Source: Escherichia coli
GTDB lineage: Bacteria; Pseudomonadota; Gammaproteobacteria; Enterobacterales; Enterobacteriaceae
Direction: 5' to 3' (one strand)
Length of the DNA: 64,000 bases
Assembly (NCBI RefSeq): GCF_029227855.1
Contig: NZ_CP074356.1
The stretch's first letter is position 1; every line of letters starts with the position of its first letter. This document shows positions 21,133 through 47,663 of the stretch, one piece after another. The translations under genes were made by a program, and so were the position numbers. The notes below the pieces were generated by a model. That model saw nothing but the letters and a program-made list of their open reading frames with translations. It ran no database searches and had not been told where the DNA came from.

Positions 21133-23679
21133 TCACGAAAAATATTGCTGTAATAGCGGCGTATCGTGATCCTGATTGGCAGGCGGCATGTTACCGATAG
21201 ATTTTGTGCGGAACGGAATCACCTGTTCACGACCATCAACCTTCACAATCTGATAGAACTGCGGCAGGTTGAAGTTGATGAAGCTTGAGCCGTAGGTGAA
21301 GCGGTCGTGCGATGACGAGTAGAAGCGACTGACGTCACGCACCAGTTCCTCTTTGCTGCCTTCGCAGTGGTGATACACCTCAACCCGGTTGCTTTCGTCG
21401 AGAATGTAGATATTAAAGCCATTCTCGTCTTGCGTTTCTTCGAAGAAGAACTGGATGATCCCTTCACTAGCAAAGCCGTCCACCACCGCCGGTAATTTGA
21501 CGTGATTGGTTTCAACCTGCACTGACAAGCCGTGCAGTTTGTTATGCGAAATAGCGCCATAAAACTCGATGGCGTTTTCCAGTTTTTGTACCGATACATT
21601 CAGGCGTTCGAAGAACAACCCCCAGGTTTGACCAGAAACGCGCAGCGCCTTGAAACGCCCGGTTTCCTGGCGGGTGCTGGAAAGGCGCAGTTCAATACAC
21701 TCAGAAACCAGTTGCTGCACGCGAGTACGGATTAACCCGCGCAGATGCTGGCTATAACAGAAGACTTCCACGCTATCTGGCGGTGCGGCGTCCTGATGCA
21801 TTTTGCCGAGAATAGTTTTCAGGGCTTCGATCATCGATTGCTCGCCGTTGAAGTGCAGCGTACGCACTTCGTTCCACGAGTTGCGGTACAGCAGGTCAAC
21901 GCTACCTACCAGGCAATTTTGATTCTCGCCAAAGCTGAAGACATCCAGCTTACGGAAATCAAAATGCACCACCTGATTGCGGAACGCCGCTGTCGGGTCA
22001 TATTCCAGGTTAACGATAATCGCCAGATGGCGGATCTCACACGGGCTGTAGAGCGCCTTCGGTGTCGGTGCAGGTAAGCGCAGCGGGAAATGGTGCGACA
22101 CGTCGGCGACCATCTCCTGCAACTTAGGCAAATCGACAATGCCGTTACCTTTAATATACAAACGGGTGCGCGAGGTCAGCAGGCCGTTAAACCATGCCCA
22201 CGCCACCAGTTTATTCAGGTAACGGTTATATTCCAGCGGCTGATGGCTGATGATCGACTCAATATTTGGCGCGCGGTTATACAGATACCAACCTGAACGG
22301 TTAGCACGGCCCGGCGGCACATAAATAAAGGTCAGATTCGGTTCCGAGAGATCGGGTGAAATCTGCGGGTTTACCAGCGTCACTTTACCTGGTAATGCTT
22401 CAAACGCGGCATACAGCTTACGCGTCAGCACGCCGATATCCTGCGGACTGGCGGAGACGCTAAGGTTATTGCGACGCGCAAAGCGGATCAGATTACGGTA
22501 GCTCTGCATCATCGCGTCGAGCAACTCGTTGTGCGCCTCACGCACCTGATCAATCTTCCAGTTAGCGCGGTTATCGAGCATTGCCAGACGAGCTTCGTCC
22601 CAACCCCACTCGCTCACTAACTGGCTCAACACTGCGCGACGCCAGCCTACGCAGGCGCGTTCACGGCTGAGCTTTTCGCACACTTTTAAATAGAAGCAGC
22701 GACGTACTAAATCCAGACGGGTAAAATCTTCAATCGCCGTCAGGTATTCAGTAACACGCTCCAGCATCATGCAGTATGGATCGAGACCAAACGATACAAT
22801 CTCGCCGTCGTGCAAACGCTGTTTGATATCTTTCGCCAGCAGACGTGGGTTCGGGTATTCCCAGGAATAGGCTTCCAGCAGCAGTGTTTTCAGTACCGCT
22901 TTGTATGGGGAATCGATACTCTTGTAGAGCTGCCAAAGGCTGGCACCAAAGTACTCTTCAGCAGAAAGCGAGCTTAAGCCACCGAGATCCAGCCATTCAT
23001 TTGGCGTCAGCACGCCCTGCGCGTAAAGCGTCATCACATAGTCGTCGTAATGCTCTTCTTCGTCGCACGGCACCATATTCCACAGAATACGCTTACCGGC
23101 GAGACGCACGGCGGTACGATAAAATTCGTCAAGCAGCAGTATATGCTGGGTGGAGCCACAATCTTCGCCCCCCAGGCTGCCGCTTTCATTATGACGGAAG
23201 CGGTTTTCATCAATCAGGAAGAAGCTGACTTCCACACCCAGCGAGGCGGCCCAGCTTTCCAGCAGACTACATTTACGTTGTAGTAACTGGCGCTCTTCGC
23301 TATCGAGCCAGGATTGATGACAGACCCAGATATCCAGGTCAGAGGAACAACTTTGCCCTACGGACGAGGTGCTGCCCATGGTGTATACACCAGTAATTGG
23401 AAGCTCACCTTTCGGTGGGTCCTGTACTGACATTCCACGATACAGTTCAAGCTCGTTCAGGTAGTGGCGTTGAGTTTCATCAGGCGTGTAAAGGCAAATG
23501 CCTTTGGGAACGTTACCATCAAGGTAACCCGGCATTAGCGGATGGTGATAGTGCAACAATGTCGGCAGTAGACTGTAGACCTGTTGGAATGCAGGCCCCA
23601 TAGCAGCAAGCGCGCGATCCACACGCAATTGATTTATGGCATCCAGTCTCTGTTTCAGAGTCTCAATATAGAGGTACAA
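21133..23679 (-). CDS. cyaA: class I adenylate cyclase
   Basis: 848-aa [21 protein letters not shown]...; the initiation codon read from the sequence is TTG (complement of 23677..23679). Confidence 0.93.
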
Positions 23680-24065
23680 GACGTATCGCCTGATTTGCTA
23701 CCCGTCATGACTGTGATTCCGCCAACATCAACGGTAACACGCGGCATTCGGGATATTTCGTATGTCAAAGGTAACCGTTACCACTTTTCGCGCCTGGTTT
23801 TTTTAGTTTCACGACGAAAAAATGGTCTAAAACGTGATCAATTTAACACCTTGCTGATTGACCGTAAAGAAAGATGCGCTACATACAAGTGTAGCACCGT
23901 TTATTCTCTGTAAATTCCTTATTACGACGGCGTGAAACGCCTGTCAGGATCCACTGCCAGACCTCATTTTACGGTTTGCGCAGGCGTCTACGTTTCACCA
24001 CAACACTGACATCACTCTGGCAAGGATGTTAGGATGGACCACGGATGATAATGACGGTAACAAGC
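23680..24065. promoter_or_regulatory. cyaA-hemC divergent promoter region
   Basis: 386-bp non-coding interval between divergent starts; individual promoter and CRP sites not resolved by eye. Confidence 0.35.
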
Positions 24066-25007
24066 ATGTTAGACAATGTTTTAAGAATTGCCACACGCCA
24101 AAGCCCACTTGCACTCTGGCAGGCACACTATGTCAAAGACAAGTTGATGGCGAGCCATCCGGGCCTGGTGGTTGAACTGGTACCGATGGTGACGCGCGGC
24201 GATGTGATTCTTGATACGCCGCTGGCGAAAGTAGGCGGAAAAGGCTTATTTGTAAAAGAGCTGGAAGTCGCGCTCCTGGAGAATCGCGCCGATATCGCCG
24301 TACATTCAATGAAAGATGTGCCGGTTGAATTCCCGCAAGGTCTGGGGTTGGTCACTATTTGTGAGCGTGAAGATCCTCGCGATGCCTTTGTGTCCAATAA
24401 TTATGACAGTCTGGATGCGTTACCGGCAGGCAGTATCGTCGGGACGTCCAGTTTACGTCGCCAGTGCCAACTGGCTGAACGCCGCCCGGATCTGATTATC
24501 CGCTCCCTGCGCGGCAACGTCGGCACTCGCCTGAGCAAACTAGATAACGGCGAATACGATGCCATCATTCTTGCCGTAGCCGGACTAAAACGTTTAGGTC
24601 TGGAGTCCCGCATTCGCGCCGCGTTACCACCCGAGATTTCTCTTCCGGCGGTAGGACAAGGTGCAGTCGGTATTGAATGCCGCCTTGATGATACGCGCAC
24701 TCGCGAGCTGCTTGCCGCGCTGAATCACCACGAAACTGCACTGCGCGTTACCGCAGAACGCGCCATGAATACCCGTCTCGAAGGTGGATGTCAGGTGCCA
24801 ATTGGTAGCTACGCCGAGCTTATTGATGGTGAAATCTGGCTGCGTGCGCTGGTCGGCGCGCCGGACGGTTCGCAGATTATTCGCGGTGAACGCCGCGGTG
24901 CGCCGCAAAATGCCGAACAAATGGGGATTTCGCTGGCAGAAGAGCTACTGAATAACGGCGCGCGCGAGATCCTCGCTGAAGTCTATAACGGAGACGCCCC
25001 GGCATGA
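24066..25007 (+). CDS. hemC: porphobilinogen deaminase (hydroxymethylbilane synthase)
   Basis: Start at [20 protein letters not shown] gives 313 aa; first gene of hemCDXY. Confidence 0.92.
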
Positions 25008-25744
25008 GTATCCTTGTCACCCGCCCGTCTCCCGCTGGAGAAGAGTTAGTGAGCCGTCTGCGCACACTGGGGCAGGTGGCCTGGCATTTTCCGCTGATTG
25101 AGTTTTCTCCGGGTCGACAATTACCGCAACTTGCTGATCAACTGGCAGCGCTGGGGGAGAGCGATCTGTTGTTTGCCCTCTCGCAACACGCGGTTGCTTT
25201 TGCCCAATCACAGCTGCATCAGCAAGATCGTAAATGGCCCCAACTACCTACTTATTTCGCCATTGGACGCACCACCGCACTGGCGCTACATACCGTAAGC
25301 GGACAGAAGATTCTCTACCCACAGGATCGGGAAATCAGCGAAGTCTTGCTACAATTACCTGAATTACAAAATATTGCGGGCAAACGTGCGCTGATATTAC
25401 GTGGCAATGGCGGTCGTGAGCTAATTGGGGATACCCTGACGGTGCGCGGTGCTGAGGTCACTTTTTGTGAATGTTATCAACGATGCGCAATCCATTACGA
25501 TGGTGCAGAAGAAGCGATGCGCTGGCAATCCCGCGAGGTGACGATGGTCGTTGTTACCAGCGGTGAAATGTTGCAGCAACTCTGGTCGCTGATCCCACAA
25601 TGGTATCGTGAGCACTGGTTACTACACTGTCGACTATTGGTCGTCAGTGAGCGTTTGGCGAAACTCGCCCGGGAACTGGGCTGGCAAGACATTAAGGTCG
25701 CCGATAACGCTGACAACGATGCGCTTTTACGGGCATTACAATAA
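25004..25744 (+). CDS. hemD: uroporphyrinogen-III synthase
   Basis: 246-aa ORF overlapping the hemC stop by 4 bp. Confidence 0.9.
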
Positions 25745-25765
25745 CTCTCATAACAGGAAGCCATA

Positions 25766-26977
25766 ATGACGGAACAAGAAAAAACCTCCGCCGTGGTTGA
25801 AGAGACCAGGGAGGCCGTGGACACCACGTCACAACCTGTCGCAACAGAAAAAAAGAGTAAGAACAATACCGCATTGATTCTCAGCGCGGTGGCTATCGCT
25901 ATTGCTCTGGCGGCGGGCGTCGGTTTGTATGGCTGGGGTAAACAACAGGCCGTCAATCAGACCGCCACCAGCGATGCCCTGGCTAACCAACTGACGGCAT
26001 TGCAAAAAGCCCAGGAGAGCCAAAAAGCCGAGCTGGAAGGCATTATTAAGCAACAAGCTGCACAGCTTAAGCAGGCGAATCGTCAGCAAGAAACGCTGGC
26101 AAAACAGTTGGATGAAGTCCAACAAAAGGTCGCCACCATTTCCGGCAGCGATGCTAAAACCTGGCTGCTGGCTCAGGCCGATTTTCTGGTGAAACTCGCC
26201 GGACGGAAGCTGTGGAGCGATCAGGACGTCACGACCGCTGCAGCGTTGCTGAAAAGTGCAGATGCCAGCCTGGCGGATATGAATGACCCGAGTCTGATTA
26301 CCGTTCGTCGGGCAATTACCGATGATATCGCCAGCCTTTCTGCAGTTTCGCAGGTGGATTATGACGGCATCATCCTTAAGCTTAATCAGCTTTCAAATCA
26401 GGTAGATAACCTGCGTCTGGCCGATAATGACAGCGATGGTTCGCCGATGGATTCCGACGGTGAAGAGCTTTCCAGTTCCATCAGCGAATGGCGTATCAAT
26501 CTGCAAAAAAGCTGGCAGAACTTTATGGACAACTTCATTACGATTCGCCGTCGTGATGACACCGCCGTACCGCTGTTAGCGCCAAATCAGGATATCTATC
26601 TGCGCGAAAATATTCGCTCTCGCCTGCTGGTCGCAGCACAAGCTGTACCGCGTCATCAGGAAGAGACTTATCGCCAGGCGCTGGAGAACGTCTCCACCTG
26701 GGTACGTGCTTACTACGATACTGATGATGCCACCACCAAAGCATTCCTCGACGAGGTGGACCAGTTAAGCCAGCAAAATATCTCGATGGATCTTCCGGAA
26801 ACCCTGCAAAGCCAGGCGATGCTGGAAAAACTGATGCAGACTCGCGTGCGTAACCTGCTGGCACAACCGGCAGCGGGGACAACGGAAGCTAAACCTGCAC
26901 CTGCACCTGCACCTGCACCTGCACCTGCACCTGCACCGCAAGGTGATACTCCGGCAGCCGCGCCGCAAGGAGAATAA
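25766..26977 (+). CDS. hemX: HemX membrane protein with coiled-coil and Pro-Ala repeat
   Basis: 403-aa ORF with an N-terminal TM segment, Q-rich coiled-coil region and a C-terminal (PA)n tract. Confidence 0.88.
26894..26929 (+). repeat. perfect hexanucleotide tandem repeat (CCTGCA)x6 inside hemX
   Basis: Six exact CCTGCA copies encoding [12 protein letters not shown], followed by a degenerate seventh unit. Confidence 0.9.
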
Positions 26978-26979
26978 CC

Positions 26980-28176
26980 ATGCTAAAAGTGTTATTACTC
27001 TTTGTTTTGCTGATTGCGGGGATAGTGGTTGGCCCGATGATTGCCGGTCATCAGGGTTACGTGCTGATCCAGACTGACAACTACAATATCGAAACCAGCG
27101 TCACGGGCCTGGCGATTATTTTGATTCTGGCGATGGTAGTGCTGTTTGCCATTGAGTGGCTACTGCGGCGGATCTTCCGCACAGGCGCACACACCCGTGG
27201 GTGGTTTGTCGGACGTAAGCGTCGCCGTGCCCGTAAGCAGACCGAACAGGCGCTGCTGAAACTGGCGGAAGGCGATTATCAGCAAGTTGAAAAGCTGATG
27301 GCGAAAAATGCCGATCACGCGGAACAACCGGTGGTGAACTATCTACTGGCTGCCGAAGCCGCGCAACAACGTGGTGATGAAGCACGCGCCAACCAACATC
27401 TGGAACGCGCAGCAGAGCTGGCCGGCAATGACACCATTCCGGTAGAAATCACCCGTGTACGTCTGCAACTGGCCCGTAATGAAAACCATGCTGCACGCCA
27501 CGGCGTGGATAAGCTGCTGGAAGTTACGCCACGCCATCCGGAAGTATTACGTCTGGCGGAACAGGCGTATATCCGCACAGGTGCATGGAGTTCTCTGCTG
27601 GATATCATCCCATCAATGGCGAAAGCCCATGTTGGTGATGAAGAACATCGTGCAATGCTGGAACAACAGGCATGGATTGGCCTGATGGATCAGGCGCGTG
27701 CCGATAACGGTAGTGAAGGTTTGCGTAACTGGTGGAAAAACCAAAGCCGGAAAACGCGTCATCAGGTAGCGTTGCAGGTGGCAATGGCGGAACATCTTAT
27801 TGAATGTGACGATCATGATACTGCCCAGCAAATTATCATCGATGGCCTGAAACGCCAGTACGACGATCGCCTACTGCTGCCGATTCCTCGACTGAAAACC
27901 AACAATCCGGAACAGCTGGAAAAAGTGCTGCGCCAGCAGATCAAAAACGTCGGCGATCGCCCGCTGTTGTGGAGCACACTGGGCCAGTCACTGATGAAGC
28001 ACGGAGAATGGCAGGAAGCATCGCTCGCCTTCCGCGCGGCGCTGAAACAACGTCCGGACGCCTACGATTACGCATGGCTTGCCGACGCGCTGGACAGACT
28101 GCACAAGCCGGAAGAAGCTGCAGCGATGCGTCGCGACGGTTTGATGTTAACGTTGCAGAACAACCCACCACAGTAG
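26980..28176 (+). CDS. hemY: HemY (TPR-containing inner membrane protein)
   Basis: 398-aa ORF with two N-terminal TM segments; last gene of hemCDXY. Confidence 0.9.
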   Translation: MLKVLLLFVLLIAGIVVGPMIAGHQGYVLIQTDNYNIETSVTGLAIILILAMVVLFAIEWLLRRIFRTGAHTRGWFVGRKRRRARKQTEQALLKLAEGDYQQVEKLMAKNADHAEQPVVNYLLAAEAAQQRGDEARANQHLERAAELAGNDTIPVEITRVRLQLARNENHAARHGVDKLLEVTPRHPEVLRLAEQAYIRTGAWSSLLDIIPSMAKAHVGDEEHRAMLEQQAWIGLMDQARADNGSEGLRNWWKNQSRKTRHQVALQVAMAEHLIECDDHDTAQQIIIDGLKRQYDDRLLLPIPRLKTNNPEQLEKVLRQQIKNVGDRPLLWSTLGQSLMKHGEWQEASLAFRAALKQRPDAYDYAWLADALDRLHKPEEAAAMRRDGLMLTLQNNPPQ

Positions 28177-28223
28177 TTCCTTCTCACCCGGAGGCAAGCA
28201 CCTCCGGGACCTTTCTGATGCAT

Positions 28224-28430
28224 AAAAAAACGCCTGCTCTTATTACGGAGCAGGCGTTAAAACAGGTCTGTATGACAACAAGTGGGTGCTTCACTCAACG
28301 TTGTGTCCATGGTGTCTGATGAGGCATAAGCGACATCTGTCAGTGGACGATAAGCACCGTAAACGGCTCTGCGTCATTCCGGAGTTTATGAGGCACTAAG
28401 GCGAACATAAGAGATGGAATGAGCATCTAC
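28224..28430 (-). ncRNA. glmZ: small regulatory RNA GlmZ (glmS activation pathway)
   Basis: Reverse-complement reads GTAGATGCTCATTCCATCTCTTATGTTCGCC...CCTGCTCCGTAATAAGAGCAGGCGTTTTTTT, matching GlmZ as I recall it, including the terminal hairpin and U-tract; about 207 nt. Confidence 0.85.
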
Positions 28431-28855
28431 CCGTTTATTATGCCACAGAGAATCGGGAAATAACATCCCTTAACACTTGTTATGAGATAATTCTGTAATC
28501 CTCTTTGCTTCCTGAGTAATAACTTCCTGAGTGAATATTTAACCTGAGCTTGATCCTACACATACTTATTATGAATGATAAAATTCATTCAATTAATAAC
28601 ACATATATTAATTGCCGTTAAAACTAAAAAAAAGCATCAATAATCAACGCGATATAATAAACCTGCCTTACATATCAACTGCGCCAGAGGTAGGATTGAA
28701 AACGCTCTCCTGATTTTCCAATTCATTTTCTGGATAAATAAATAATTTATTTTTGTCACTATTATTTATGTAATCATCCTGTCAAGGAGAGGGATCTCAA
28801 TTATCAATGCTTAATTACGTCATCATTTTGATGACATGAAACCGGAGCATTTTGC

Positions 28856-29020
28856 ATGGAATTTTCGTTTTCACCCAAACTTTTTGTTGTTGCTGTCGCC
28901 GCCGCTCTTCCTCTCATGGCCAGCGCAGCAGATACCCCGTCAACTGCCACCGCACGCAAAGGCTTTGCCGGATACGATCACCCAAACCAGTATCCACAGA
29001 ACGCTGCAATTTATTGAATT
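28856..29020 (+). pseudogene. 5' remnant (about 54 codons) of a secreted-protein gene, probably arylsulfatase aslA
   Basis: ATG at 28856 encodes [46 protein letters not shown]... (signal peptide with ASA cleavage motif), then runs into REP sequence and stops; synteny predicts a ~550-aa aslA here but only about 670 bp separate glmZ from aslB. Confidence 0.5.
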
Positions 29021-29030
29021 TGCACGATCA

Positions 29031-29069
<39 letters not shown>

Positions 29070-29100
29070 AACCGCAGGCGGCCACAAAATGGCCGCTTTT

Positions 29101-30336
29101 TTACTTATTCACCACCAGCAAATGTGCCTGCATAATGTCACTGGCCGGGCGACCGTGCGCCAGCAAATCAGCCATTGCTTTAAGATATGGCGGTAGATGG
29201 CGGAAATAACGCTGATACCCGGCACACAAATAATTCAGCCCCGGTTTGCCGCTGGCATCGAGCATGAAGCGGTGTTTCGGGCAGCCTCCCCAGCACGCTT
29301 TTAACACGTTACAACTGCGACACTGCGCCGGTAATTGCTTAAATTTATCTTCACCAAACACCTGCTGTTGCGGGGAATCGATCATTTCTGCAATTGTTTG
29401 CTGATGCATATTCCCCAGCCGATATTGCGGATAAACATAGTGATCGCAGGCGTAAACGTCGCCGTTGTGCTCAACAATCACCGAGCGCCCACAGGTTGGC
29501 TGATGATGGCAAACCGCACCCGGCGCACCGACAAAATTGGCAAACGCCCATTCGATATTCATCACGAAAATCTTGCCGACGTCGCGTTTGATCCAGTGGT
29601 CGAATATCGCCACCAGAAATTCACCAAATTCATCGGGGCGCACCGACCATTCCGTCAGTTCCCCCTGAATATCACCAGGCGCATGTAGTTTCAGTCCATC
29701 GCTGGCAGCTGTTTCATCAGCCAGGCGCTCGACCACCGGAATAAACTGGATGAATTCGACTCCCGCATCGCACAAAAAATCATAAACCTGCAACGGTTGC
29801 TGCGCGCTGGTGCGGTTGACGCAGACCAGCACGTTATAGTCGACATGATGTTTTTGCAGCAGCGTCAGGGCACGCATCACCAGCTTATGCGTTGGTCTGC
29901 CACCTTTGGTCACGCGATATTGATTGTGGATCTCAGCCGGACCGTCCAGCGATAACCCAACAAGAAAATGATTTTCTGCCAGAAATGCACACCATTTATC
30001 ATCGAGCAGCACGCCGTTAGTCTGGAAGCTGTTACTTATCTTCCTGCCAGCACCGTATTTCGCCTGTAACTTTACGGCACGGCGGTAAAAATCCAGCCCG
30101 AGTAACGTTGGTTCGCCGCCCTGCCAGGTAAAAGCCACTTCGTTTTGCGGTTCGCTGGCAGCGATATAGTGACGGACATACGCTTCCAGCGTGTCATCGT
30201 CCATATGCGTGACTGGCTTTTCGCGGTAAAGGGATTGTTTTTCGAGATAAAAACAGTAGTCACAGTTCAGATTACAATCGGAACCACTCGGTTTCGCCAT
30301 CACATGAAAAGCACGCGTTGGAACCTGTTGCAGCAT
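29101..30336 (-). CDS. aslB: anaerobic sulfatase-maturating enzyme homolog (radical SAM)
   Basis: Start at MLQQVPTRAFHVMAKPSGSDCNLNCDYCFY gives 411 aa; CxxxCxxC radical-SAM motif and C-terminal Cys clusters. Confidence 0.88.
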   Translation of the reverse strand: MLQQVPTRAFHVMAKPSGSDCNLNCDYCFYLEKQSLYREKPVTHMDDDTLEAYVRHYIAASEPQNEVAFTWQGGEPTLLGLDFYRRAVKLQAKYGAGRKISNSFQTNGVLLDDKWCAFLAENHFLVGLSLDGPAEIHNQYRVTKGGRPTHKLVMRALTLLQKHHVDYNVLVCVNRTSAQQPLQVYDFLCDAGVEFIQFIPVVERLADETAASDGLKLHAPGDIQGELTEWSVRPDEFGEFLVAIFDHWIKRDVGKIFVMNIEWAFANFVGAPGAVCHHQPTCGRSVIVEHNGDVYACDHYVYPQYRLGNMHQQTIAEMIDSPQQQVFGEDKFKQLPAQCRSCNVLKACWGGCPKHRFMLDASGKPGLNYLCAGYQRYFRHLPPYLKAMADLLAHGRPASDIMQAHLLVVNK

Positions 30337-30451
30337 GGTCACTCCTTGCCTGAAGTCATCCTTCAATACGTTAAGGGCGAAATCATACCGTGGGGCAATG
30401 AGTTATTACGGGCGTTTATTGCGAAGGGAGGGTGACGAAATGCACAGAAAA

Positions 30452-30476
30452 CAAAAAACCCCGCCGAAGCGGGGTT
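30452..30476 (-). terminator. intrinsic terminator of the tRNA operon
   Basis: On the - strand: hairpin CCCCGCTTCGGCGGGG followed by TTTTTTGTTTT, immediately 3' of tRNA-Pro. Confidence 0.7.
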
Positions 30477-30482
30477 CAAAAT

Positions 30483-30559
30483 TGGTCGGCGAGAGAGGAT
30501 TCGAACCTCCGACCCACTGGTCCCAAACCAGTTGCGCTACCAAGCTGCGCTACTCGCCG
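30483..30559 (-). tRNA. proM: tRNA-Pro (anticodon UGG)
   Basis: Reverse-complement CGGCGAGTAGCGCAGCTTGGTAGCGCAACTGGTTTGGGACCAGTGGGTCGGAGGTTCGAATCCTCTCTCGCCGACCA, with encoded CCA. Confidence 0.95.
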
Positions 30560-30600
30560 AAATACTGCTTTTTGAATTTTTAGTTCAATTCTTTAAAGTC

Positions 30601-30687
30601 GTGGTGCGAGGGGGGGGACTTGAACCCCCACGTCCGTAAGGACACTAACACCTGAAGCTAGCGCGTCTACCAATTCCGCCACCTTCG
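30601..30687 (-). tRNA. leuT: tRNA-Leu (anticodon CAG)
   Basis: Reverse-complement GCGAAGGTGGCGGAATTGGTAGACGCGCTAGCTTCAGGTGTTAGTGTCCTTACGGACGTGGGGGTTCAAGTCCCCCCCCTCGCACCA (87 nt, long variable arm). Confidence 0.95.
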
Positions 30688-30717
30688 CATTGTCACAACT
30701 TCTAATAATGGGGTGGC

Positions 30718-30794
30718 TAATGGGATTCGAACCCACGACAACTGGAATCACAATCCAGGGCTCTACCAACTGAGCTATAGCCACCACTACAAAT
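30718..30794 (-). tRNA. hisR: tRNA-His (anticodon GUG)
   Basis: Reverse-complement GGTGGCTATAGCTCAGTTGGTAGAGCCCTGGATTGTGATTCCAGTTGTCGTGGGTTCGAATCCCATTAGCCACCCCA, including the extra 5' G typical of tRNA-His. Confidence 0.95.
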
Positions 30795-30842
30795 CTTGTT
30801 ACGCGGTATTACTACCACCGCAGCTCAAGCGCCGGGACTAAA

Positions 30843-30919
<77 letters not shown>

Positions 30920-31021
30920 TTAGCGCCGTTGCGGGGGTGGATAATACGGACTTCCCACCCCTCTGTCTAGTCCCTTTTTAAATAAATTGCGCGTTTGGTT
31001 ACGGTTTGTGCGTTTTGCTGC

Positions 31022-32407
31022 TTATTCCTCCAGTTTATGCGCTTTCCCGTGGCGATTAAGGCCAAAAACTTTATAAATCGCCGTCACCGCCAGCATAAAG
31101 ATGATGCCAACAAACAGCGACATACGCGTATCTTCATTAAAGTACATGCCGATCAAAACGCAAATCAGGAATGCCATTGTTACGTAGTTGGCCCACGGGA
31201 ACAGGATTGAGCGGAACGGATGGCTGGCAATCGCCGCTTTATGTGCACGCCGAAAACGCAGCTGGCTTATCAATATCACAAACCATGGCACCATCCCCGG
31301 AAGCACGCTGGCACTGTAGACGTAGACAAACACACGCTGCGGATTGGGAATGATGTAGTTCAGGCATGAGCCAATTAGCAGAATAGCAATAGATACTGCC
31401 ACACCCGCAACTGGTACGCCGTGACGGGAAACTTTCGCCATCGCCGCCGGTAACTGACGGTTTTTCGCCAGTGCGTAGAGCATACGTCCGCAACTGTACA
31501 TGCCGCTGTTACAGCCAGAGAGCGCAGCCGTCAGCACCACAAAGTTGATAATGCCCGCCGCTGCGGTAATACCGATTTTGGCAAAAGTCAGTACGAACGG
31601 GCTGCCGTTGCTGCCAATTTCATTCCACGGGAAGATGGTGACGATAACGAAAATCGCGCCTACGTAGAAAATCAGGATCCGCCACAGCACTTTGCCTACG
31701 GCACTGCGCAGCGTCACCTGCGGATTCTTCGCTTCACCGGCAGTAATGCCAATCAGCTCCACGCCCTGGTAGGACGCCACCACAATACACAGCGCGGTCA
31801 GGAACCCTTTCCAGCCACCCGCAAAGAAACCGCCATGCTCTGTGAGATTGCTAAAACCAATCGACTGCCCGCCATTGCCAAAGCCAAAGAAAATCACGCC
31901 CAGGCCAATGACAATCATCACGATAATCGTGGTGACTTTGATCATCGCGAACCAGAACTCGATTTCGCCGTACAACCGCACCGCCGCCAGATTCGCCAAC
32001 GCCACCAGCGCCACTGCGATCAATGCGGGTATCCACTGCGCCATCTCCGGGAACCAGAACTGGACATAAACGCCAATGGCGGTGATTTCTGAGATCCCCA
32101 CGGCCATCCACATAAACCAGTAAGACCAGGCGGTGAGATAACCAAAGAACGGGCTCATATAACGATGCGCATAAACGGCGAACGAACCGGTAACCGGTTC
32201 GAGGAACAACATTTCGCCCATTGAACGCATGATGAAAAAGACGAATAGCCCGGCGATGATATAGGCCAACAATACGGATGGCCCGGCCCATTTCAAGGTA
32301 CTGGCGGCCCCCATAAACAGGCCGACGCCAATGGTGCCCCCCAGGGCGATGAGTTCGATATGTCGAGCTTCCAGCCCACGCTGTAGCTCTGGTTTGTTAT
32401 CTGCCAT
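31022..32407 (-). CDS. yifK: APC-family amino acid permease YifK
   Basis: 461-aa 12-TM ORF ([33 protein letters not shown]...); synteny next to the argX tRNA operon. Confidence 0.9.
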
Positions 32408-32541
32408 AAATCCTCGTGTTGTGTTTGCATGCTTTCCGGTGTTACCGGTTATCGTTATGGGTACATCGAGTGTTGCGAATGTTTTCGTAATTCAGGAGAA
32501 ATGGCAAATAAAGCATTAAAAATTTGAATGCTTTGTGTAAT

Positions 32542-32579
32542 AAAAAAGCAGACAGGCGACGGAGTGACCACTCCGTCGC
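32542..32579 (-). terminator. probable terminator at the end of the wec (ECA) operon
   Basis: Hairpin gcgacggag/ctccgtcgc; on the - strand followed after a short spacer by a T-run; just downstream of the wecG stop. Confidence 0.45.
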
Positions 32580-32597
32580 TTTACAAAGAGAGGAAAA

Positions 32598-33338
32598 TCA
32601 GAGGTTGCCGGTGTAGTGCCAGCGTAAATAACGCAGCAAACGAAGCTGACGCTTAATGCGGCTCGGCTGCGAAAGCAGGCGGTAGAGCCACTCCAGTCCC
32701 AGCGTTTGCCAGATTTTCGGTGCGCGTTTTACGTGACCGGTGAAAACATCGTAAGTCCCGCCAACGCCCATATACAGCGCATCTGGATGCACCAGACGGC
32801 AGTCGCGCATGAAGATCTCCTGCTTTGGCGATCCCATCGCAACGGTGACGATTTGCGCTCCGCTGGCATGAATGCGTTCAAACAGCGCCTGACGCTGCTC
32901 GGGTTTAAAATAACCATCCTGACTGCCAACGATATTCACATTCCACTGGTTGCGCAGTTTAGCTTCAGTTTTCGCCAGCACTTCAGGTTTACCGCCCACA
33001 AGAAATACCGGCGTCCCTTCTTTGCCTGCGCGCGCCATCAGCTCTTCCCAGAGATCAGCACCGGCAACGCGGGAAACCTGCGCCTGCGGGTACTTTTTAC
33101 GTACTGAACGTACAACGCTGATGCCATCCGCATATTTAAATTCGGCAGCGTTAATTAGCTCCCTGACCTCAGCATTATCTTCAATGGTCAGCATTTTTTC
33201 GGCATTAATGGCAACCAGCGTTCCCTGCTTAAGATGCCCGTCAGCAAACAGATAATCGAGGGCGTGCTGCATATCACGCCAACCAATCAACTGTAAGCCA
33301 CGCAGCGTATAGGTCGGTGCCATGGTGTTGTTATTCAT
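32598..33338 (-). CDS. wecG: UDP-N-acetyl-D-mannosaminuronic acid transferase (ECA)
   Basis: 246-aa WecB/TagA/CpsF-family ORF; last gene of the wec cluster. Confidence 0.9.
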
Positions 33339-47203: not shown

Positions 47204-47533
47204 TTACGCCAGGTTAGCGTCGAGGAACTCTTTCAACTGACCTTTAGACAGTGCACCCACTTTGGTTGCCGCCACTTCACCGTTTTTGAACAGCAGCAGA
47301 GTCGGGATACCACGGATGCCATATTTCGGCGCAGTGCCAGGGTTTTGATCGATGTTCAGTTTTGCAACGGTCAGTTTGCCCTGATATTCGTCAGCGATTT
47401 CATCCAGAATCGGGGCGATCATTTTGCACGGACCGCACCACTCTGCCCAGAAATCGACGAGGATCGCCCCGTCCGCTTTGAGTACATCCGTGTCAAAACT
47501 GTCGTCAGTCAGGTGAATAATTTTATCGCTCAT
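47204..47533 (-). CDS. trxA: thioredoxin 1
   Basis: 109 aa from [50 protein letters not shown] (WCGPC active site); the ORF track upstream extension was rejected. Confidence 0.95.
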
Positions 47534-47663
47534 ATATAACTCCACAGGAATAAGCCTGGCGTGTTGGTTTCGTTGTTGGTGTAACATTAACCAACTAAAG
47601 GTTGACTTTATTTCACCGGATACGCTTTCGTAAAGCAATAGTAAGCTGATATTCTACCACACT

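Follow-up and report, generated by a model that had tools for sequence, protein, structure and literature searches.

The window, which is the whole stretch of 64,000 nucleotides of Escherichia coli DNA analysed here, keeps the gene order of K-12 around glmZ. The order is hemC-hemD-hemX-hemY, glmZ, a truncated aslA, aslB, the tRNA cluster proM-leuT-hisR-argX and thrP (thrP/yifK), with the hem genes on the plus strand. The glmZ gene lies antiparallel between hemY (plus strand, end at 28176) and the aslA remnant (plus strand, start at 28856). We place its full-length primary transcript of 207 nt at 28224..28430 on the minus strand, with +1 at 28430. This placement combines the Rfam match, the identity with K-12 and the length of 207 nt that a review gives for the GlmZ primary transcript (PMC4152352). 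Over 22 kb around glmZ, identity is 99.8-100% with E. coli isolates from the environment and from cattle and with Shiga-toxin-producing ones, for example VCSW8 and O22:H8 strains. The window is thus chromosomal DNA of E. coli.

On the hemY side, a GC-rich hairpin (cacccggaggcaagcacctccggga, 28186..28210, plus strand) lies 3' of the hemY stop (28176) and faces the glmZ terminator in convergent orientation. The hairpin, conserved in K-12 as well, is probably the terminator of hemY. Compared with the K-12 MG1655 locus, the 47 bp spacer between the glmZ terminator and hemY presents three changes. On the other side, aslB (29101..30336, minus strand) encodes an intact anaerobic sulfatase maturase that shares 400 of its 411 residues with the K-12 protein. 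The equivalent gene is annotated as aslB in strain 00-3076.

Other features of the window were also recorded. HemX (25766-26977) has 403 aa, compared with 393 in K-12. The ten additional residues are in a C-terminal Pro-Ala dipeptide repeat (26894-26923), which reads AKPAPAPQA in K-12. The length of hemX varies among related genomes and is 1218 bp in strain 00-3076. Rfam also gave two matches above threshold on the minus strand: Rev39_5p_UTR at 62708-63000 (159.9 bits) and the TrxA 5' UTR thermometer at 47504-47603 (78.8 bits).

Identity and conservation of GlmZ

A sequence-only reading had assigned 28224-28430 to GlmZ with its intrinsic terminator. It proposed as controls a covariance-model search and the conservation of the promoter and of the central stem-loop bound by RapZ and RNase E. 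A poor score or a disrupted terminator would have spoken against it. The Rfam 15 covariance-model scan of the whole 64-kb window returned RF00083 (GlmZ_SraJ) at exactly these positions on the minus strand, with 218.4 bits (E 3.4e-56) for a gathering score of 60 bits. The match spans positions 1-214 of the 214 in the model. It has no truncation and zero non-canonical pairs flagged, and it was found again when the sub-region was scanned separately.

The reverse complement of 28224-28430 is identical to K-12 MG1655 3986432-3986638 at 207 of 207 positions. So, no change affects the central stem-loop, the terminator or the stretch of 15 nt that pairs with glmS. The gene is the known GlmZ (SraJ/RyiA, b4456), with the same 207 nt, terminator, -35 and -10 hexamers, orientation and hemY-aslA position as in MG1655. 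Among complete E. coli genomes, 5424 of 5426 carry these 207 nt with at least 99% identity (median of one copy per genome, highest two). Nothing in the sequence argues against the identification, and the assignment was exact to the coordinate.

The same reading stated that an annotation based on ORFs would not reveal the gene. This agrees with the records. A RefSeq/PGAP record with the same deletion allele has nothing annotated from hemY to the aslA remnant. Likewise, of 25 genomes sampled for the features under the glmZ match, 23 gave "none" and two gave "hypothetical protein". In the RefSeq record of K-12, glmZ has 172 nt (3986432-3986603) and stops before the terminator; the literature, Rfam and the window sequence support 207 nt.

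Structure of the RNA and its terminator

The match presents the GlmZ_SraJ architecture: two large stem-loops on the 5' side are followed by a linker that is single-stranded and by the terminator hairpin. The base pairs are intact. According to the Rfam structure line, stem-loop 1 comprises nt 1-65 (28366..28430, minus strand). All of its pairs are canonical, and its core also appears in the MFE and centroid folds. The same line gives the central stem-loop 2 at nt 73-146 (28285..28358, minus strand), with an outer helix GGUGCUU/AAGCACC. Its sequence is identical to that of the K-12 reference, where RapZ binds this stem-loop (PMC4152352). By analogy, RapZ would bind it here too.

The rho-independent terminator occupies 28224..28258 on the minus strand and consists of an 11-bp stem, an 8-nt loop and a U-tract. 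It was supported by a terminator scan, by Rfam and by the fold. The scan, which is independent of Rfam, places 11 pairs (7 of them G-C) from 28258 to 28229, followed by the T-run. The stem and the U-tract are intact down to 28224. GlmZ has a predicted folding energy of -60.8 kcal/mol, with z = -3.33 relative to dinucleotide shuffles. Both the MFE and the centroid folds recovered the terminator and the cores of the stem-loops.

The glmZ promoter and the intergenic region

The complete aslA-glmZ intergenic region of 425 bp is kept (28431..28855, by alignment to K-12), with only three differences from K-12. One of them is the A to G change at -1 (28431), and the other two lie further upstream. 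At 28785, read on the RNA strand, K-12 has C and the window T. The remaining difference is in a T-run on the minus strand (28622-28633), near 28630, where K-12 has C-TGTTTTT and the window CTTTTTTTT.

The σ70 promoter region, from -40 to -1, corresponds to 28431..28470 on the minus strand. It is identical to K-12 save for the change at -1, which is outside both hexamers. By our own reading of the sequence, the -10 element is CATAAT (-12 to -7, 28437-28442), preceded by TG at -15/-14 (28444-28445), and the -35 element is ATGTTA (-36 to -31, 28461-28466), all on the minus strand. The hexamers and their spacing are those of K-12, and the proposed control of promoter conservation left a single substitution.

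Previous work on K-12 glmZ found that the sequence upstream of -40 is dispensable, with only -40 to +1 needed, and that mutations of the -35 or the -10 reduce or abolish expression (PMC3045617). The -35 of K-12 was described as matching the consensus at three bases (PMC3045617), and ATGTTA in the window likewise matches three of six positions. A generic σ70 scan missed the glmZ promoter because the -35 matches only these three. The promoter call therefore rests on identity to the promoter mapped in K-12. On this basis, an Escherichia-type single σ70 promoter is predicted within -40 to +1. Across the intergenic region, the generic scan found three promoter-like sites, with 2.4 expected from shuffles, that is, no excess.

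Promoters of this type are single and constitutive, and GlrR does not bind them (PMC3045617). In Salmonella and Yersinia, GlmZ belongs to the same RNA family and has the same role as glmS activator. In contrast, their glmZ genes have σ54 promoters with GlrR sites and IHF sites, where the window has the single σ70 promoter of Escherichia type (PMC3045617).

The 90-nt haplotype from -80 to +10 that carries the G at -1 occurs without change in 1571 genomes (about 29% of those sequenced). As a natural variant it is common.

The aslA deletion allele

The window aligns by blastn to K-12 in two blocks: 23000-28994 to K-12 3991832-3985869, and 28996-33000 to K-12 3984289-3980294. The breakpoints and the junction alignment place the deletion junction at 28994..28996. 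The absent segment is K-12 3984290-3985868. It comprises 1579 bp, from codon 47 to the end of aslA plus 62 bp downstream.

What remains of aslA is an ORF of 53 aa (28856..29017, plus strand). Translation against K-12 AslA shows 46 original codons (28856-28993), which include the signal peptide, then seven codons out of context and a stop. In K-12 MG1655, the gene divergent from glmZ is full-length; here it is cut to 46 codons. PGAP labels the equivalent remnant as a pseudogene, "arylsulfatase, incomplete, missing C-terminus". Besides the signal peptide, the remnant still has the aslA start codon and the region upstream of it; its last seven residues are novel.

The sequence-only reading had placed glmZ immediately beside the deleted aslA and stated that the deletion ended before the sRNA and the presumed region of its promoter. 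The deletion is real, and the K-12 and junction alignments show that the sRNA and the promoter region are kept, with a difference only at -1. The proximity was overstated. The junction and the glmZ start are 564 bp apart, with the junction upstream (about -565) and far beyond the -40 limit of the promoter. Between the junction and glmZ lie the 425-bp intergenic region and the 46 aslA codons.

We counted the allele with a 181-nt probe across the junction, covered at 80% or more. The identical junction is present in 1728 of 5426 complete E. coli genomes (32%). In K-12, O157:H7, BL21-type and APEC O1:K1:H7 genomes, only one side of the junction was matched and aslA is full-length. The deletion is a widespread natural allele, not peculiar to the source genome. 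Strain 00-3076 (NZ_CP027584.1) has an identical aslA junction. From the hemY stop to the aslB stop it is identical at 923 of 924 bases, and the sole difference is at 28785 (A in the window, G in 00-3076). It also carries the 90-nt promoter haplotype. We looked for repeats or microhomology at the junction and found at most 1-2 shared bases, which point to no particular mechanism of deletion.

Downstream of the junction, what was the aslA-aslB intergenic region still has its REP element and its hairpin terminator (29035..29098). They were located by naRNA4 matches and the terminator scan, which gave a terminator-like site at 29076-29098. The naRNA4 (RF02564) matches over the REP element (29035-29098) have 44 and 33 bits, on both strands, and are below the threshold of 59.5. 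A short ES036 match at 29004-29025 is also below threshold. A permissive Rfam scan for a second RNA within 28100-29150 returned only these sub-threshold matches, naRNA4 (REP-related) and ES036. In roughly one E. coli genome of three, aslB is an orphan maturase whose neighbouring presumed substrate gene, aslA, is deleted.

A study of 2024 on IBD described invasive isolates as having "acquired" AslA (PMC11879602). We considered whether K-12-like strains gained aslA, instead of a loss here. This was rejected because the locus still has the aslA promoter region, its start codon and the 46 codons that include the signal peptide. With this signal-peptide remnant kept, the aslA polymorphism at the hemY-aslB locus looks like loss through a 1.58-kb deletion rather than gain.

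Pairing with glmS and the proposed control

The Rfam structure line leaves a single-stranded linker from about nt 147 to 172. A duplex prediction located the stretch that would pair with glmS at 28262..28281 on the minus strand. It comprises nt 150-157 (UUGUUGUC) and nt 163-169 (GACCUGU). These 15 nt are predicted to pair with the K-12 glmS 5' UTR between -41 and -21. The target was the K-12 leader; glmS, rapZ and glmY of the source strain lie outside the window. The 66-nt leader segment that holds the site showed full identity in 4950 of the 5425 E. coli records with a match; in the others, identity was 95-99%.

The predicted site agrees with the published one, in which 15 nt of the linker pair with UTR positions -41 to -19 (PMC4152352). 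Among 1000 shuffled linkers, 77 pair with the UTR at least equally well. As this energy is not significant, the pairing claim rests on the coincidence with the published site and on the identity with K-12. We take the prediction as corroboration and not as proof. Full-length GlmZ against the entire glmU-glmS intergenic region gave a structure from end to end that was no better than shuffles (170 of 300). That duplex was discarded as meaningless, and the prediction was confined to the linker.

The processed form of GlmZ has about 151 nt (PMC4152352). Correspondingly, the processing site of RNase E and RapZ would be at about nt 151, inside the linker at 28262..28281.

As K-12 has exactly the same RNA, the function of GlmZ here is best explained by the mechanism known from K-12. 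The scheme of control by Hfq, RapZ, RNase E and GlmY is taken from PMC4152352. By analogy with K-12, a constitutive σ70 promoter would drive a 207-nt GlmZ that ends at its own intrinsic terminator. The linker, with Hfq, would pair with the glmS 5' UTR. This pairing would open a hairpin that hides the ribosome-binding site, and GlmS synthesis would increase. When glucosamine-6-phosphate (GlcN6P) is plentiful, RapZ on the central stem-loop would recruit RNase E. The cut at about nt 151 would then remove the glmS-pairing site. When GlcN6P is scarce, the decoy sRNA GlmY would sequester RapZ and counteract the cleavage. Transcription, the action of Hfq, RapZ and RNase E, and the activation of glmS in the source strain are thus expected from the K-12 model.

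Alternative readings

Our main reading is that 28224-28430 is the chromosomal glmZ of E. coli, a gene of K-12 type with the adjoining, widespread aslA deletion allele (probability about 0.97). Both the gene and its context are already known, and the finding is ordinary.

The first two stem-loops of GlmY (RF00128) are homologous to those of GlmZ, and RapZ binds both RNAs (PMC4152352). The segment could then be the decoy GlmY instead of a functional GlmZ, or else a GlmZ/GlmY-like copy that has degenerated. Both RNAs belong to one Rfam clan (CL00011), and an overlapping clan match with a lower score is suppressed, which leaves room for this reading. Nevertheless, GlmZ is the top-scoring clan member with full-length coverage, and the sequence is identical to K-12 glmZ. 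GlmY has no linker complementary to glmS and resides at another locus; the window has the linker, absent from GlmY (PMC4152352), at the hemY-aslA location, which is the glmZ locus. We rejected GlmY identity on clan competition, the pairing linker and the locus, and we give either form of this reading a negligible chance.

A different question is the output of a true GlmZ. The variant at -1, similar in frequency to the aslA-deletion allele, could shift the choice of start site or the GlmZ level, for which we see a slim chance. The broader proposal, in which the start site or level is altered in the lineage by this variant or by the upstream context left by the deletion, we regard as very improbable. 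One base does differ from K-12 directly before the start site. Moreover, the haplotype (1571 genomes) and the junction (1728) have similar counts and occur together in strain 00-3076. Against an altered output, both hexamers (-35 and -10) are as in K-12, with the same spacing. K-12 needs nothing upstream of -40 (PMC3045617), and the junction is at -565. In addition, it is unlikely that a conserved regulator would be disabled by a haplotype that about 29% of the sequenced genomes share. If the effect of the -1 variant were true, the third of E. coli concerned would control GlmS and cell-envelope precursors around a set-point that differs slightly.

Implications

With GlmZ of K-12 type as the preferred reading, the result has little importance beyond correct annotation. 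GlmZ is among the best-characterised sRNAs of enterobacteria and is here identical to the reference. Regarding annotation, the automated RefSeq procedure misses glmZ in most of the sampled E. coli genomes. As for aslA, its presence or absence in surveys of virulence genes corresponds to a clean deletion allele of 1.58 kb at the hemY-aslB locus. This allele, carried by about a third of complete genomes, spares the neighbouring regulator glmZ and aslB.
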